Below are positions 17,489-54,997 of a stretch of 64,000 nucleotides of DNA, piece by piece. Position numbers and translations under genes: made by a program. The notes below the pieces were generated by a model. That model saw only the letters and a program-made list of their open reading frames with translations. It did no database searches and was not told the DNA's origin. Origin of the DNA: Glaucostegus cemiculus (taxonomy: Eukaryota); NCBI GenBank assembly GCA_976551045.1, contig CDPCPM010000049.1:6386001-6450000 (forward strand), written 5' to 3'. Positions within the stretch are counted from its first letter, which is position 1; each line of letters opens with the position of its first letter.

Positions 17489-18810
17489 GTACATGTGAGG
17501 ATACATTTAAATTTGCTAGAATACCATTAACTGTGGCTTGCATACCAATTTTAGATTTTAAAAACACGATCTATTATCCCCCTTTTATAACATTTATTTC
17601 ACAACTTTAAACAACTTGATTGCAATTCTTGTACAAAACAAATGGATATGCTATAATTCAGCTGTCTCGATACTTTGAATGCCAAGTATTTAATGTGGTT
17701 GTAAACAACATTAATTTCAGTAAAGTTAGGGCCTTCTGCCAAGGAAACAGTCGAAGAACTGATGGAAATCACTCAAGTGCATGTCCATGTGAAGAGCAAA
17801 TGACTTCCCTGTCCTTTGTCCCTTGTAGGTTATTGAAGATTATTTCTGACCAACTTTTTCTTGATATAGGAACACTGTACCTTATGCAAGGAGAAAGAGA
17901 TCAACATTTCTGGAATAGAATATATGGAATGAAAAGTAAATATTGAAAGCTCATTCCAGCCTGCAACCTTGAGATTTTTGGCTGCAAAGTTTCACAGTTT
18001 AAGATTATAGATCTGTGTGAACAAGGAAACATTTCTACACAGTGAAAAATATTGTCTAACAAGCAAGAGACACAAAATTGCCCAACAGAATGCTTTGAAA
18101 ATAAAGCAGGAATTTCTGTCTAGAGTTTCCACATCTGAAGCAGTTTACTGTCTCGCCAACTATTTTTCACTTTCAAATTTCTGGTTGGCAACCCTATTGG
18201 AACTTTGTGAGAAATATTTTAAGCAGACAAATTTCTTGTCTCAAGTTGTAGCACTTAGATGAAACCTGAGCCAAAGTTTACAGATATACTATTATATTTT
18301 ATGTTTTGCTGACTGCCAGAATGGAAATCTAAAAATACGTGTCAGAGAGTGACTATGTCATTAAACAAATAAAGAGCCCATGGGATCTGGAGTAAAGTGT
18401 TGCTACAGTTCTGCCTCTTGGCAGCAGAACTAGGGGCAACTTTATTTTCCTCTGAGAAATGAAATGAAGTGCAAGTAAGTGCATAACATTTGTATCTAAT
18501 ACACAGCAGAAAAAGTGTTAACTCATGACATTCTGCTGACTCTTGAGTGCACACTATTGGAATTTTTGGGGAAAAATGATTTTGCCACATGGGTACTTAG
18601 ATTATTCCCATATTCCTCCACTAATTCAGGGCTGCTGGATTGTGGATTCTGTTGGACAAAATGCACTCATTGTATTACTAGTGAGATTTACACCACATAT
18701 CATTGTGACAAGTAACATTCTATTGCATTACAGCACAATAATTGCATAGAAGAGGCATCTTTATGGTTGTATGAGTGTCCAAAAATATGTTAGAGAGTCA
18801 GAACTCGGGA

Positions 18811-18916
18811 TGTCATAGAGCCATACGCCACAGAAACAGGCCCTTTGGCCCAGTGTTAATCCCATTTTTATCGTCCCCACATTACCATCAAATCCCCCCA
18901 GATTCCACCGCTAACC
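18811..18916 (-). mobile_element. 3' part of an HE1-like SINE or CR1 tail
   Basis: gtcatagagccatacgccacagaaacaggccctttggccca followed by a catcaaatccccccagattc segment resembling the 28063 copy. Confidence 0.55.
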
Positions 18917-19029
18917 TTTGTTTTGTAGCAACTAAGTTTTTAAATCTTAGAAAAATGATACAAGAAAAGTTGAGGGCCAACCTGCCAACAGTTCAGCAGA
19001 AGGGACTATGCCCTTGAGAAGGTCCTCAC

Positions 19030-19440
19030 CCAGTGTTGCTGAGTAGAAAGGTCCAGGATTCAGATCCGCCAGTGACGAAGGAACATTGGTAAGACAATGT
19101 GTGAATTGCAGGGGAACCTGCACATGATTGCATTGTCATGTGCCAACCCTTTGGGAGAGGACATTTGAAATATATTGGTAAGTATTTGCACTACATCTTG
19201 GGGATGGTACACACCACAGTCACAGTGCACCAGTTTTGGAGGCAATGTATATTTAGGGTGGTAAATGGGTGCCTGTCAAGTAAATGACTTTTTCCTTGAA
19301 AATGTTGGGCTTTCTGTGTATTGCTGGAGCTGCATTCATTTAGACCATTAGAGAGTACTTCATTACAGTCCTAATGGAGCCTCGCAGACAGTGGAAAGGC
19401 TTTGGGGAGTCAAGGTGTGAGTTTTTCACTGCAGGACTAG
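19030..19440 (-). mobile_element. Old L2/CR1-group LINE ORF2 fragment
   Basis: gatggtacacaccacagtcacagtgc, tgttgctggagctgcattcatt and ggaaaggctttggggagtcaagg; same family as 31205 and 39480. Confidence 0.6.
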
Positions 19441-20264
19441 AACTGCATGTTCTGGAAAAATTGAATAATGTATGTTGCAGTTTGACACCTATTCTCTATC
19501 ATTTCAGGCATGTGCATTGAAACTATCGCAACTGCCACCATATCAGATTTTTGCCTCTAATTCAAAAACCTCTGAGACTTGATACCCTTGGTTACACAGT
19601 AGTTGTTTTTCCACCCTTAAAGGGTATGTGGCAACCTTCTTCCTGTCAGTCCCAAGACTTTATTTATCTCAGTTCTTCAGAGCTTTGACAATGACCCATT
19701 CTCACCTTTCAAAAGCTTATTCTCCTGCAGGCATCTTGCATTCTCTGCTGCTCAAAAAGTGATACCCTCTTAATACCATCCAAGAGATTGGAAAAAAAGC
19801 ATTAAATTTCCAGCAGTGCCAATCCTGTACAAAGATACTGTACACCACCACTTCCAGCTACCCTGAATAGAATATCAGTGTCCCACGTGGAAAAGACCAG
19901 TCAGGGGTGCTGGTTCTACTCAGCCACTTGCCCACCAATATTCTTCTTCAGACCATATGGGTATCTCCTTGCTCTTGGATAGGGGGAGGTATGCTTGGGG
20001 GAGGAGGAATAGAAAAGAAAAGGAGGAAGTTGATCGGAAGCACCATGAGTGATATCTAATCATTTTCATCTGTTGGAAAATGATGTGAATATCTTGTAGG
20101 GAGGAATGAGTGTGTGTTATAATTGTTCATTGTCAGGTTGCTCACTGACTAAACTCAGATCTGAAGAATGGCTGCTGGGGTAAAGTCCTCGAGAGCATGG
20201 AATCTTGGGTGTCGGTGTTTCTAAGGATGAATATAGGTTGAGAGGTGGGAGATTCATTTGTCAA

Positions 20265-20459
20265 TAGAGACACAAGAGATTGCAGATGCTGGAATCTGAA
20301 GCAACAAACAATGTGCTGGAGGTACTCAGCGGGTCATGCAGCATCTGTGGGGGGAAAATAGTCCTGATGCAGGGTTTCGACCTGAAATGTTGACAATTTC
20401 TTTCCTTCCACAGATGCTGTCTAAACTGCTGAGTTCCTCCAGCACATTGTTTATTGCTT
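20265..20459 (+). mobile_element. Penelope-like-element-derived palindromic non-autonomous element
   Basis: Starts acacaagagattgcagatgctggaatc. Inverted arms of ~59 bp (20299-20357 and 20401-20459, about 85% complementary) enclose a hammerhead-like core. Confidence 0.7.
20357..20397 (+). ncRNA. Degenerate minimal type I hammerhead ribozyme motif
   Basis: Stem I aatagtc/gacaatt; core CTGATGC-A (canonical CUGANGA); stem II GGGT-TTCG-ACCT; GAAA-T; triplet GTT. The topology matches minimal PLE hammerheads, but this copy is probably decayed. Confidence 0.55.
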
Positions 20460-21430
20460 ATTTGCTAATAGTTGTGAACTGGTTATGAAGATCAGGAAAT
20501 AGGTTACTATATTAATCTAAAGTAAATTTAATTTTATGTAATAAACTACTCCTACATTCTAGATTAAAAATCCACAGTTTAGCAAATGCAGGGCTGGAAA
20601 AGACCCAAGTTTTTATCCAAATTATCCTAAATGCTGAAGGTTACTTCCTCAAAACAAAAATCCAGTTCTCTTTATTTTTTTTCCCCTCATTATCTGGCCT
20701 CATTAAAGAAAAACAAATGGCTAATTTGGATTAGAAGTATAATGTAAGAAGGAACAAGTGTGCTGGTGGTGGTTGATTGAGCAGGGTGGTAAGTCCTGAT
20801 TCGGTGGTGGGTAGGGGGGCTGCTGGTGTCAGTGGTGGGAAGTTATAATGGTGAGAGTGGGTGAGAAGATAGCAGTTGGGCAGAGGGTGAGCAGATGGTG
20901 GTTTGGGGTGAGGTACAGTAATCTGGGAGTTATGGGGAGGAGGAGATGCAGGGAATTGTGGTGGAGATACTTGTGCTTTTATTGTCCACAAGCTGTGCTG
21001 CAAAGACACTTACCTCATGAATTCAGCCCCCCTAATCTGCTTCCAGCTGTCAGGTTTCAATAATGGGATGTCTGTATTGAGGCACATGTACTTGCACAAT
21101 TTCCTTGAGAGGTTCAAATGGAACAATTGCTCTCTGAACATACATGACCCCCTGCTCAGAGTACTTTTCCCTCTCTCTACCTTCCTCTTTGGGCAGTTTT
21201 CCCTCTACACCTACTCTGCTCATTCTGCTTGTGCTGTACTTCAAGTGGAGTGCCTGCTAATGCATCCATGGGCATTGCAGGGGCCTTGAACTGAGACAAA
21301 TTCCTTTGATGCCTGTTTAACCAGTTCCTTTCCACTATGCCAACTTTAAAACTGTCTTAAAGCACTGAACACTAACTGAATCTGTGTAACAGGCAGAAGT
21401 CAATCAGCAGCTGTTCATTTTACAAGAGAA

Positions 21431-21571
21431 TTGGAGAATAAAAAGAAGGAAGTCTTGGTGCAAGGTATAGGGCTTTGATGAGGTCACAGCTCGAAGTACT
21501 ATGTGCAGTATTGGTCACAGAATAGCTGTCTTGGAAATTATGACCTGCAGATTCACCAGATTGATTCCTGG
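21431..21571 (+). mobile_element. Decayed CR1 ORF2 fragment
   Basis: gtatagggctttgatgaggtcacagctcgaagtactatgtgcagtattggtc and agattcaccagattgattcctgg. Confidence 0.6.
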
Positions 21572-21627
21572 TCTTTGATGATGAAAGAATGATTAAACTT
21601 GTGCATTTTTAAAAAATCATTTAGAAT

Positions 21628-21795
21628 CCATTGTTAATTGTCTATGAACTGAGTGGCTTGACAGACCATTAAAGAATGAAACTTATTGGTGGGTCTACAT
21701 TCTGTGTAGGAATGGCAGATTTCCTTCCCTGAATGACAGTACTGATTTTGCAACGATCTTGTTTAGTGGTCATCGTGACTCATTTCTTTTTAATA
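21628..21795 (-). mobile_element. 3' half of a Meta-like SINE split by a CR1 insertion
   Basis: ggcagatttccttccctgaatgac is the reverse complement of the agggaaggaaatctgcc core; aactgagtggcttg lies tail-proximal. Confidence 0.6.
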
Positions 21796-21799
21796 TAAT

Positions 21800-22260
21800 T
21801 ACTAAATGAATACTTCTCATCTATATTCACCAAGGAGGAGGACAAGGAAGATGATGAATTCAGGGAGGAGTATGTGGATAATCAGGAGCAAGTCAGTTTT
21901 AAAATGTAGGAGGTGTTAAATGTTATGGCATGCATAAGGGTTCATATGAGATCTGTCCCACGTTGCTTTGGATAGGAAGGGAGGAGAAAGCAAGGGACCT
22001 TACAGAGATTTTTCTTCATTAGCTGCAGGAGAGGTGCCCAGGGGACTGGAGGATATAGCTAATGTTGTTCCTTTACTTAAGAAGGACAGCAGAGATAAGC
22101 AAGGTATCCATGGGCTGGTGAGTCTCGCATCAGTGGTATGGAAATTATTGGAGAACATCTTAAGGAAAGGCTGGGGCTGATCAGGAGTATTCAGCATGGC
22201 TTTGTGCAGGGAGGATATCTTGCCTCCCTGATTTGATTAAGTGTTTTGAGCAGGTAACTA
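21800..22260 (+). mobile_element. CR1 ORF2 internal fragment (start of RT)
   Basis: LNEYFSSIFTKEE, then IANVVPLLKK...VSLASVVWKLLENIL, QHGFVQG and atttgattaagtgttttgagcaggtaac. Confidence 0.85.
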
Positions 22261-22261
22261 G

Positions 22262-23980
22262 CTGCTCAAAACATTAGTAGTACAAGTATGGGAGCGGGAA
22301 GTCTCGCTGCCATGTAAGTATCACAAGAGCTGGAACGAGAACGAGAGCGGGAAGCAGTTTAAAAAGGTAGGCCCGTTGTTGTTCTTGTTTCTGTGGTGAG
22401 TTGATAGGCCTGTTGATTAGCTAATTGGATAATTAAGCTGCAGCTCCCAATAAAAAGAAGTTAGGGTCAAGTGGAACAGCCCTTGTTGGAGTGAACAGTG
22501 TTAGAGTGGGGAGCTGAGGCTTTCGCTCAAGAGGCTTCGGCGTAAAGAGACTGAGTAGGTGAGCAGAGGTTTCTGGTAGGTTCTCTTTCTTTATTTGTTA
22601 TTTTCTTTGTATGGAACAGTGGGACAGTGGTAATGACAGTCAGGACAGAAGAGTGCTACTCCTATAGAATGTGGGAAGTCAGGGAGACCTCCAGTCTGCA
22701 GCTGCGGCTGGCTGCAGCTCCTTGCAGACCATGTTAGGGAGCTGAAGCTGCCGCTGGATGAACTCTGGATCATTTGGGAAGCTGAAGAGATGATATGTAG
22801 GAGTTACCAGGGGGCGGTTACATCTAGGGAGCGGGATGTAGGTAGTTGGGTGACTGTTAGGAGAGAGAAAAGGAATAGGTAGTTGGTACAGGATACCCTG
22901 GTGACCATTTTCCTTGATAACAAGTATGTCGTTTTGGATGCTATTGGGGGGAATGAATCACTGGTGGAGAGCCACAGCAGCTGGGTCTCTGGCACGGAGT
23001 TTGGCTCTGTGGCTCAGAATGGAGGTGGGGGGTAAGCAAAAGAGGAGTGCAACAGCAACAGGGGAGTTATTGGTTAGGGGAACCGACAGGAGGTTCTGTG
23101 GATAAGGATGAGATTCTCAGACAGTATGCTGCCTCCCAGGTGTCAGGGTCAGGGACGTCTTGGGTTGAGTGCACAGCATTCTTAAGGGGGAGGAGCCAGA
23201 AGTCGTGGTGCACATTGGCACCAATGACATAGGTAAGAATAGGGATGAGGTTGTGAAGAGTGAGCATTGGGAGTTAGGAAGGAAGCTAAAAAGCAGGAGC
23301 TCAAGGGTAGTAATCTTTGGATTGCTGCATGTGCCATGCGCCAGGGATGGATAGAATGGAAGATATGACAGACTAATGAGTGCTGAATAATTGGTGCAGG
23401 GGTAGGGGTTCAGATTTGTTGATCATTGGGATTTTTTCTGGGATAGGTATGACCTGTACAAAACGGACAGGTTACACCTGAACTCGAGAGGGACCAATAT
23501 CCTTGTGGGGAGGTTTGCTGGAGCTGTTGGGGAGGGTCTAAAATCGGTTGGCAGGGGGATGGGAACCAGAGTGTTTGATTAGAAGACGGATCAGTTGGTG
23601 TAGAAGTAGATGCAATGTGTGAAGAGAATGTGAGGAAGGATAGGTGGGGGACGGTGCTTAAATGCACTCAGATGGGTCGAAGTGCGTTTACTTTAATGCA
23701 ACAAGTGTTATGGATAAGGGTGATGAACTTGGAGCATGGATCAGTACATGGAATTAGGATGTTGTGGCCATTACAGAGACTTGGCTGTTGCAAGGGCAGG
23801 AGTGTCTGCTTGAGGTTCTGGGGTTTAGATGTTTCAAGAGGGATAGGGAGGGAGATAGAAGGGGTGGGGGGGTGGCCTTGCTAATCGGGGATAGTATCAC
23901 AGCTGTAGGAAGAGAGGGCATCATAGAGGGATCATCCATTGAGTCAGTGTGGGTGGAAGTCAGAAACAGGAAGGGAGCAA
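22262..23980 (+). mobile_element. 5' end of a CR1 LINE: 5' UTR, ORF1 (esterase/SGNH domain) and the start of the ORF2 endonuclease; disrupted
   Basis: Fragments LLVRGTDRRFCG, HSILKGEEPEVVVHIGTNDIG (CR1 ORF1 esterase), AITETWL and RRGGGVALLI (APE endonuclease), with many stops and frameshifts. Confidence 0.88.
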
Positions 23981-47874: not shown

Positions 47875-48096
<222 letters not shown>

Positions 48097-52890: not shown

Positions 52891-54126
52891 ACATTACCCA
52901 TTAGTTCTTACATAAATAGATCTTAAAGTGAACAGGCTGGTGTCGGGCATTTAAAGTGCTGGTGCATTTCTGTGCTAGTGATTTAGATAATACACTCTGG
53001 ATCAATAGGGTACTATTCTCCGTGTGATGAATCCTTGCCCTGACCCAGCTTCAAAGCTGCCAGTGAGTAGTAATGAGAAGTAGGTGGTTTTATATGCATG
53101 TTTCTAGGGCAGAGTATCACTCTCAAAAGAACACAGCTCTGTGGAGTATGTGACTCATTGACTTCCTTTCATTTAATTTCACTATAATTAATTGATCCAA
53201 AGTGATGGCAGATATCTATTTTGTCCAACTTTTATTGGTGAAATATAGACTAGCTTAGTCAGAATCTAGGGATTAGGTTATTGGGCATTTACACAGCATG
53301 GATAATGCAAGGACAACTGTAGAAAAGAAATATAAAATTACTAAGAAATATTGGCAACATCTACCCCTAGACCATAGCATTCCCCAATCAAAATATAATG
53401 GCTTTGTTGCATGATTTCATTACATGGTCATGTTACTTAAGTTAGAGCAGTATCTGCAGTACAAACACCATTTATCGAGGAATGTTGTTTCCACTACCAG
53501 TTTCCCTTGCCAATTTAACATCAAAAGTTAAAAACTCAAAATGTGGAGAAGGATTACCATCCTATGTTTGCCCTGGCAGCCTGCAGATCCATAACATGTA
53601 GGGAGCATATGACAAAGCATTTTTTAATTGGCTTTTCCCAACATACCTGGTTTTGTGGGAAAAGCAATCATCAGGGGCTGCAGTGAATCTGCATTATCAG
53701 CAAAGCAGTAATTGGAACGAGAGCCACAGTCCCATACTTGCTCTGTGGATATTCTGATCCAGTTTGTGACCTGATTACAGATGGGAGCTTTAATTGCTCA
53801 GAAGCATTGGGCACTCTTTACCCGTCAAGGTGACCTGTCTCCTCCTCTCTTCAAATTGGGAAAGGGATCCAAAATAATGAATGGTCCATGGTATCAATAA
53901 ACTGGGCACTTTCCAAAAATAGCCAAAAGCACCTAGCTTTTCCACCCCCATTGCGGTATTTATTCATTCTTGAGGTCCCATTAATATCACTCAAAGTATG
54001 AATTGCTTTTCCCCACAACATCTCTTTCAATGGTTTCAAGACATTATAAAGAAATGAAGCTGTAAAATGAAGTTTAGAATATGCAGTTCCATGTTTACAT
54101 TTTGGCTTATACTTTCTACAAAACAG

Positions 54127-54243
54127 TAACCTGTAACTATGGAAATGGGGGCTGTCAGCATACCTGTGATGATACAGACAATGGACCAGTGTGTGGCTGT
54201 CACCAGAAATATGCTCTGCACTCTGATGGGAAAACATGCATTG
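54127..54243 (+). CDS. SCUBE1: SCUBE1 internal coding exon, EGF-like repeat (equivalent to exon 6)
   Basis: Acceptor tttctacaaaacag, donor gtaagt, 117 bp, phase 1-1. Joins the previous exon in frame (t+ta = Leu) and reads [39 protein letters not shown](E). It is absent from the ORF track because it is short. Confidence 0.93.
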
Positions 54244-54997
54244 GTAAGTAAAGACTTATTGCATGTGTTAAAGATACCATTGCTAGACAGCTTGCTGCTA
54301 TATGTGAACTGAGCAAAGGCCTGCCTTTCAGATTAAATGCTGTATAGTTTGTGTCGTCTATTGCATGAGCAGTTGTAAAGAGTATTTTCATTCTGCTCCT
54401 GTTCCATGGGAATCTGACTATCAATCCCTTTTCACTAATGTTGCAAATGGATGCCCATTAGTCGTCCTACTCACCACAGAAAGCTAGCTCTAATGTTGGA
54501 ACTGCTTCATCTTGTGTAATTAAAGCAAGTAGAAATCTTCTATGGTTATTCCATGTTACATCACATTTTTCTGAAGAAGTCTCAGTCATGCAATGTTAAT
54601 GTGTGAGCTCTGAATGTAACTCAACTAAACTCAAGACAAACTGGAGTTTATGTAAAACATTGTAATCCGGAAACATGAATTCCTCACAAGCTGACCAGTA
54701 TATGTGTGCTTTCTGGAGTAAAATCTAACTTGTTCAAGAGTTTCACTTGAAATATAGGTGAACATTTTGGGTTACAACTCTGTGCTTTAAGTTCATTTAC
54801 AGTGCTACTTTTCGAATATTGCAACTTATGTAAAAAAAAAAAGGCACATGGTTGAGGGTGAGGGGTGGTTTTTGAAGTTGGACTGTGGAGATGATGGGGC
54901 TGGAGGTTTGGCCTTTGGGAGAGTGGAGAGGCCAATATATTAGTACATTACCAAAATATCTGGAAAAAATATGGGGCCTTGTCTAAAATTTTTGCAT

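Follow-up and report, generated by a model that had tools for sequence, protein, structure and literature searches.

The hairpin found in an intron of Glaucostegus cemiculus, with a minimal hammerhead ribozyme motif in its loop, raises the question of how such a unit came to be there and whether its ribozyme still cleaves. We examined it in a 64,000-nucleotide stretch of contig CDPCPM010000049.1 (positions 6,386,001 to 6,450,000, forward strand, assembly GCA_976551045.1), referred to here as the window, together with its relatives elsewhere in the same genome. Most probably, a Neptune-type Penelope-like element (PLE) left it behind as an insertion stub, now decayed, that was likely built as a hairpin at insertion and whose hammerhead is predicted to be inactive.

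Layout of the hairpin unit and its host intron

The hairpin unit occupies positions 20268–20459 and is about 200 bp long, without an ORF. Its two arms, 20299–20357 and 20401–20459, are 59 nt each, 85% complementary and separated by 43 nt, and the region folded with a z-score of -12.3, none of 200 shuffles being equally good. The original prediction had described two near-complementary arms of ~59 nt in a unit of ~195 bp lacking an ORF; the arms and the lack of an ORF were borne out, whereas the extent had to be corrected to 20268–20459, and the 10/12 direct repeat that flanks the unit had been missed. Family and unit positions below are numbered with 20363 as position 0. The features are as follows.

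20256–20267, + strand: left target-site duplication (TSD), degenerate, matching the right copy at 10/12 positions (score 6).
20268–20298, - strand: 31-nt PLE 'tail', family +97 to +128, present in the inverted arm only; assigned by alignment, and a known feature of PLEs as described in PMC3846280, PMC8557442 and PMC11167929.
20299–20357, - strand: paired part of the inverted element end, stopping short of the hammerhead; from alignment to the family majority.
20358–20359, no strand: two-base filler at the head-to-head junction, read from the sequence.
20360–20459, + strand: sense element end, family -3 to +96; from alignment, with the 5' limit at the pile-up of family ends and the 3' limit at the first inferred RT priming site.
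20361–20394, + strand: minimal type I hammerhead motif, with decay at positions 20383, 20388 and 20391.
20460–20471, + strand: right TSD, a direct repeat of 20256–20267.
47875–48096, + strand: open frame with the next host exon, an EGF-like repeat of a SCUBE gene.

Compared to the family majority, the inverted arm (20268–20357, family +128 to +38) differed at 7/90 nt, tail included, and the sense arm (20360–20459) at 10 of 98 aligned nt. The TSD of this copy, with a score of 6 against a cut of 8, is plausible by position and weak alone. If transcribed with the host pre-mRNA, the arms within 20299–20459 are predicted to form about 60 bp of dsRNA, a possible ADAR substrate.

The preceding EGF exon lies on the + strand ~9 kb upstream of the window, giving an intron of ~57 kb, and a further EGF-like exon follows on the + strand at 54078–54248. 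Since + strand EGF exons stand both upstream and downstream, the stub lies in sense orientation within a long intron. The sense orientation claimed earlier was upheld; the gene is putatively SCUBE1 rather than SCUBE2 or SCUBE3. The 150 kb preceding the window (L143–L154), which lie within or close to the upstream portion of this gene, also contain some twelve decayed PLE ends, from both subfamilies (see below) and in both orientations. Immediately 3' to the hammerhead, at 20399–20418 (family +34 to +53), there is a second acceptor-like motif consisting of a pyrimidine tract, CAG and then ATG; by its sequence, this motif could allow sense intronic copies to serve as cryptic 3' splice sites.

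The hammerhead motif, its subfamily and the coding parent

The motif in the window consists of a 3-bp stem I (20361–20363/20392–20394), the core (20364–20370) with C (20370) at core position 9, an extra A (20371), a 4-bp stem II (20372–20375/20380–20383) around a UUCG loop, GAAA (20384–20387) and the triplet 20389–20391, after which the cut is predicted; there is no real stem III. The original reading of these parts was thereby confirmed in the sequence. When window positions 18000–23000 were searched against Rfam, no hammerhead family matched even at an E-value of 5, and two weak matches to a miRNA and a snoRNA were attributed to chance. In all three departures of the window copy from the canonical form (acct, gaaat and gttgac), C has turned into T where the family majority has a CpG site, as expected from the proposed CpG decay of a canonical ancestor. 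One change reduces the G10.1-C11.1 pair of stem II to a wobble, another disrupts the palindrome of stem III, and the third leaves U as the last base of the cut triplet. The claimed minimal type I topology is found in the family majority and in 130 exact genomic copies, from which the window copy departs at these three CpG sites.

Like published minimal type I hammerheads, the motif lacks stem III and has a short stem I, a palindromic 15.2-16.2, an extra base between positions 9 and 10.1 and, in the family, G10.1-C11.1. Unlike them, the subfamily carries C at position 9 and a stem I of 3 bp, and the window copy additionally lacks the palindrome, C11.1 and C17. The C at position 9 (C9) is not peculiar to this locus. 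It was present in the 130 genomic copies that keep the complete motif, while 765 further places keep the motif with A, G or T at this position (A in 96/100 among those listed). We also selected copies by an anchor downstream of the motif, thus without regard to the core (70 of 458 places); among the 46 of these that cover the core, position 9 was C in 41, T in 5 and A in none. Thirty long copies showed 27 C, 2 T and 1 unaligned, compared to 22 A, 1 C and 1 gap in the sister family (n = 24). The conserved A9 of type I hammerheads (CUGANGA) is therefore absent from the subfamily, and the CUGAUGC core is fixed throughout this very abundant group, in agreement with the suggestion that it was a family-specific variant. 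Three copies (L123, L138 and L268) had flanks of the A9-sister type yet C at position 9, which hints at recurrent mutation or exchange between subfamilies.

Because the C9 motif has the same length as that of the A9 sisters, C9 has replaced A9 and the extra base has been retained. A9 is described as the partner of G12, the general base, in a sheared pair (PMC2553840). We found no paper on an A9C change or a CUGAUGC core, although Lunse et al., or the figures and supplements of Cervera and De la Pena, could list one, and our literature search returned no paper on elasmobranch PLE hammerheads.

A DNA search of the genome with the unit gave 5461 first-look candidates, and among the 40 scored all 39 other places covered most of the unit at 79–85%. 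In an alignment of 30 matching loci the outer left end was fixed, the junction variable and the right end near +96. These 39 best matches are a set picked by likeness to the hairpin. A broader picture came from 90 of the 130 core-intact copies, of which 36 had long upstream element sequence and 54 were short; in 29 an inverted arm lay next to the sense end, and the inner ends of these arms fell between -4 and +88. Most copies in both the core-intact and the anchor-chosen sets had no mirror arm. The two sets shared no member (0/90 and 0/70; capture-recapture), so that only a lower bound could be set on the family, of more than ten thousand segments by a rule-of-three estimate.

Extension upstream from a core-intact copy led to long copies. 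Two copies aligned over 2.8 kb at 76%, both ending in this pLTR. Their frames and those of other long copies, all of which were broken, contained a Cys linker and a YIGET-type nuclease, with RT motifs and DKG further upstream, and homologues were found in rays at 54–63% identity. Three of five homologues matched GIY-YIG and one of five RVT_1, below Pfam cut-offs; the broken fragments themselves gave a Pfam match to RVT_1 only (E = 0.08), the nuclease fragments being unmatched, and a PDB search with the RT fragment gave no match. Judged from these alignments and motifs, the end of the unit is linked to a PLE-type RT and C-terminal GIY-YIG nuclease body, which supports the Penelope origin originally predicted. 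The Neptune clade is described as having a Zn-finger-like Cys linker between RT and EN (PMC8557442), and the Cys linker seen in several long copies points to a parent from this clade.

The pLTR was present after the nuclease and, in 20 copies, continued into the 5' body of the element, and long coding copies carried the same inverted end with its tail at their 5' side. Since the tail continues into the 5' body, motif and tail also make up the leading end of the complete element. In L016, L018 and L081, a stretch that they share beyond the tail was considered as a common target site and rejected, as it is the element's own 5' body. In that body (L294, about 1080–1200; also L311, L315, L317, L328 and L332) a donor-like CAG|GTATGT is followed ~110 nt later by a pyrimidine tract and CACAG, and these motifs suggest that the element has kept a spliceosomal intron, as is characteristic of PLEs. 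A near-identical cluster on contig C108 yielded no intact parent. It comprises at least 20 segments of more than 3 kb that are 98–99.9% alike (G000:C108:0.36-3.46 Mb, L321–L333), a recent segmental array in which a decayed piece of PLE 5' body adjoins remnants of LINE-like and other retroelements. In the A9 sister families (L061–L080), core-intact copies were long in 19/20 cases, often followed by (TG)n, compared to 54/90 stubs among C9 copies.

Copy ends and assembly of the stub

The 5' starts of the 70 anchor-chosen copies were concentrated just outside the hammerhead: 31 lay at -6 to -1, 2 at -7 to -75, 13 further upstream and 24 inside the motif or beyond. The placement of 31/57 ends within a 6-nt window has a probability of ~4e-27 under uniform ends, while only 2/57 ends fell near the cut site. 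In the A9 sister family, 13/30 starts lay at -6 to +1 and none at the cut site. Among the 20 copies that continue into the 5' body (counted after dropping rows with internal deletions or without a pLTR), 6 reached the motif edge and 5 of these 6 stopped at -5 to +1; 14 started inside the pLTR, and one at -51. At the other side, 3' ends clustered near +96 and +128. The 30 edge copies had T at -1 in all cases (30/30), G at -2 in 20/30 and A at -3 in 12/30 (G in 10/30); as the expected A at -3 occurred in only 12 of them, the edge is fuzzy by 1–3 nt. A cap-derived G before the edge was not convincing (5 G of 15), and an alternative cut just before the edge was rejected, as the sequence offers no stem III partner for it. 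Our literature search found no paper on point concerning 5' ends at the hammerhead edge.

Among hairpins not chosen for their shape, the tail was on exactly one arm in 47/47 (24 on one side vs 23 on the other), a count from which 5/29 and 3/26 inverted copies with short arms or long upstream sequence had been dropped. Fifty-seven hairpins had 56 distinct junction strings, a number partly inflated by decay; the commonest pair of junction coordinates was shared by 3 copies and that of the window was unique. The two arms of one copy shared non-CpG variants far more often than expected (34 vs a null mean of 13 and a maximum of 25 in 2000), as would be expected if both arms came from one source RNA. 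A TSD score of at least 8 was found in 20/30 hairpin loci vs 5/300 shuffled pairs, and a clear TSD was also found in 10/39 mirror-less stubs (null 6/200). In those 10 clear mirror-less cases the TSD lay within 10 nt of the core in 7 and at 42–62 nt in 3, and its proximity in 7/10 indicates that no exon had been captured.

These features match an insertion layout that has already been published. Insertion units of EN+ PLEs such as Adineta Pen2a are described as a pLTR with an adjacent inverted, 5'-truncated copy, an optional tail of 30–40 bp and a TSD (PMC3846280; PMC8557442). The present unit has an RT/GIY-YIG-linked end, with pLTR sequence both behind and ahead of the ORF in longer copies, a one-tailed inverted copy and a TSD. 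It shares with these units the head-to-head inverted end, a one-sided tail (here of 31 nt), an Inr-like motif in the pLTR, and TSDs, which are 10–16 bp in its relatives. It differs in being only ~200 bp long without an ORF, in its strictly one-sided tail (every hairpin of the unselected set) and in the pile-up of 5' ends at the hammerhead edge, a description of which was not found in our literature search. The noteworthy points, all at family level, are the fixed C9, the reading of the edge as a start site and the one-sided tail.

The following sequence of events would produce such stubs. Element RNA would start at the equivalent of ~20360, at an Inr-like TCAGT (-5 to -1) just 5' of stem I. 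The element endonuclease would nick both target strands ~12 bp apart, and at each nick the RT would start from either of two internal positions in the RNA, at about +96 and +128. One cDNA would run off the 5' end of the RNA after 100–130 nt and the other would stop earlier, and the two would be joined head to head to give a mirror stub in which a single arm bears the tail. Cleavage by the ribozyme would have no role in setting the ends, and this independence would account for the continued multiplication of a subfamily whose core has changed.

The start site and the two-nick priming are inferred. For the anole PLE, Frangieh et al. (2024) report cutting and extension of both strands of the target, a tail delimited by two internal sites at which RT begins, normal insertion by mutants of the hammerhead, and a requirement of the hammerhead for protein (PMC11167929); this biochemical precedent is a Poseidon element, whereas the present parent is assigned to Neptune by motif only. 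An internal TATA-less promoter is described for Penelope of D. virilis (PMC2377424), and Adineta pLTRs are reported to contain an Inr-like motif, with inverted pLTR, tail and TSD described for PLE insertions in the same source (PMC3846280). Like the Poseidon element PAc of Anolis carolinensis as described in PMC11167929, the family has two preferred 3' ends ~30 nt apart downstream of the hammerhead, a body that continues past the tail and ends away from the cut site. The two differ in that the PAc ORF is reported to start in stem II (PMC11167929), while the parent here carries a Cys linker of the Neptune type and a long frame that seems to begin downstream of the tail.

The same PLE stub could have acquired its 5' edge in another way, from a 3' splice site or from an RT stop at a protein-bound hammerhead rather than from a transcription start. 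A textbook acceptor (a pyrimidine tract and CAG) lies just before stem I, the letters at -1 to -3 resemble an exon junction, and an intron of the D. virilis element is reported to end at the 5' end of helix I (PMC4209133). We nevertheless regard this origin of the edge as unlikely, as no shared or captured exon was found, the TSDs that abut the edge (0–10 nt away in 7/10 clear cases) argue against a spliced leader, and this edge is also where copies continuing into the 5' body begin.

Predicted cleavage and the changed core

For the decayed window copy, folding gave the canonical stem II a probability of 0.07, compared to 0.58 in the family majority, and C9-G12 mispairing a probability of 0.67, compared to 0.01. 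The duplex of a dimeric stem III was calculated at -2.6 kcal/mol for the window copy vs -8.1 kcal/mol for the family majority, and only 3/70 anchor-chosen copies still matched a core descriptor. No second copy of the motif was found inside the 64-kb window, and minimal PLE hammerheads are reported to be silent as monomers and weak as dimers (PMC4209133). Owing to the decayed pairing, the poor dimer stem III, the missing second copy and the weakness of such minimal hammerheads, we predict that the window hammerhead is inactive, and this copy is unlikely to cleave the SCUBE pre-mRNA.

Intact relatives present a separate case, as the C9 core might be a working variant, through a C inserted before A9 or through protein-rescued folding, so that intact copies would cleave as dimers and could cut host pre-mRNAs. 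The persistence of the whole C9 motif in 130 copies and a family majority that is canonical in stem II, GAAA and palindrome are compatible with this, as are reports that the anole PLE hammerhead is protein-assisted (PMC11167929) and that low activity can persist in natural core variants (PMC3088659). We consider a working C9 core improbable all the same: the equal length of C9 and A9 motifs marks a substitution, which removes the base that holds G12 in the sheared pair (PMC2553840); minimal PLE hammerheads are reported to show no activity as monomers and little as dimers (PMC4209133); copy ends do not pile up at the cut site; and the window offers no partner for a dimer. For the decayed window copy itself, a working C9 is very unlikely.

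The retrozyme-like, non-autonomous hairpin of the original prediction, transcribed and re-inserted as one unit, is very unlikely, since the hairpin shape and fixed outer end of all 39 best matches follow a selection by hairpin likeness and, despite the shared variants of the arms and the TSDs enclosing whole hairpins in 20/30 loci, the unselected sets show variable inner ends (-4 to +88) and copy-specific junctions (56/57 distinct), most copies have no mirror arm, the same end occurs on long coding copies, the ends lie off the cut site, and animal retrozymes are described as head-to-tail tandems with canonical hammerheads (PMC7229834), an arrangement not found in the window, which holds a single unit. 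Spread as a retrozyme-like unit is thus largely refuted. What the stub shares with animal non-LTR retrozymes, as these are described in PMC7229834 and bioRxiv 10.64898/2026.07.22.740005, is that both are short, non-coding and PLE-related and carry a type I hammerhead; those retrozymes are head-to-tail tandems of 150–450 bp that are processed to circles, in contrast to the single inverted stub with a copy-specific junction seen here.

The window locus itself carries little weight, being one decayed and probably inert stub among probably more than ten thousand. The family bears on two open points of PLE biology, namely the purpose of the hammerhead and the origin of inverted, one-tailed ends. 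The strictly one-sided tail supplies a prediction that can be put to the PLE system in vitro, and the C9 and A9 subfamilies, which occur in one genome with the same end pattern, form a natural pair for a comparison of cleavage. We tentatively propose, as a possibility that falls somewhat short of even, that the stubs record the PLE cycle, with RNA made from the hammerhead edge, coupled two-site priming of both target nicks by one RNP and more than ten thousand insertions without A9, in which case either the hammerhead nuclease is dispensable in vivo or C9 is an unrecorded active core. In the former case, any retention of the PLE hammerhead would be owed to a role as a structure at the promoter edge or as one that binds protein.
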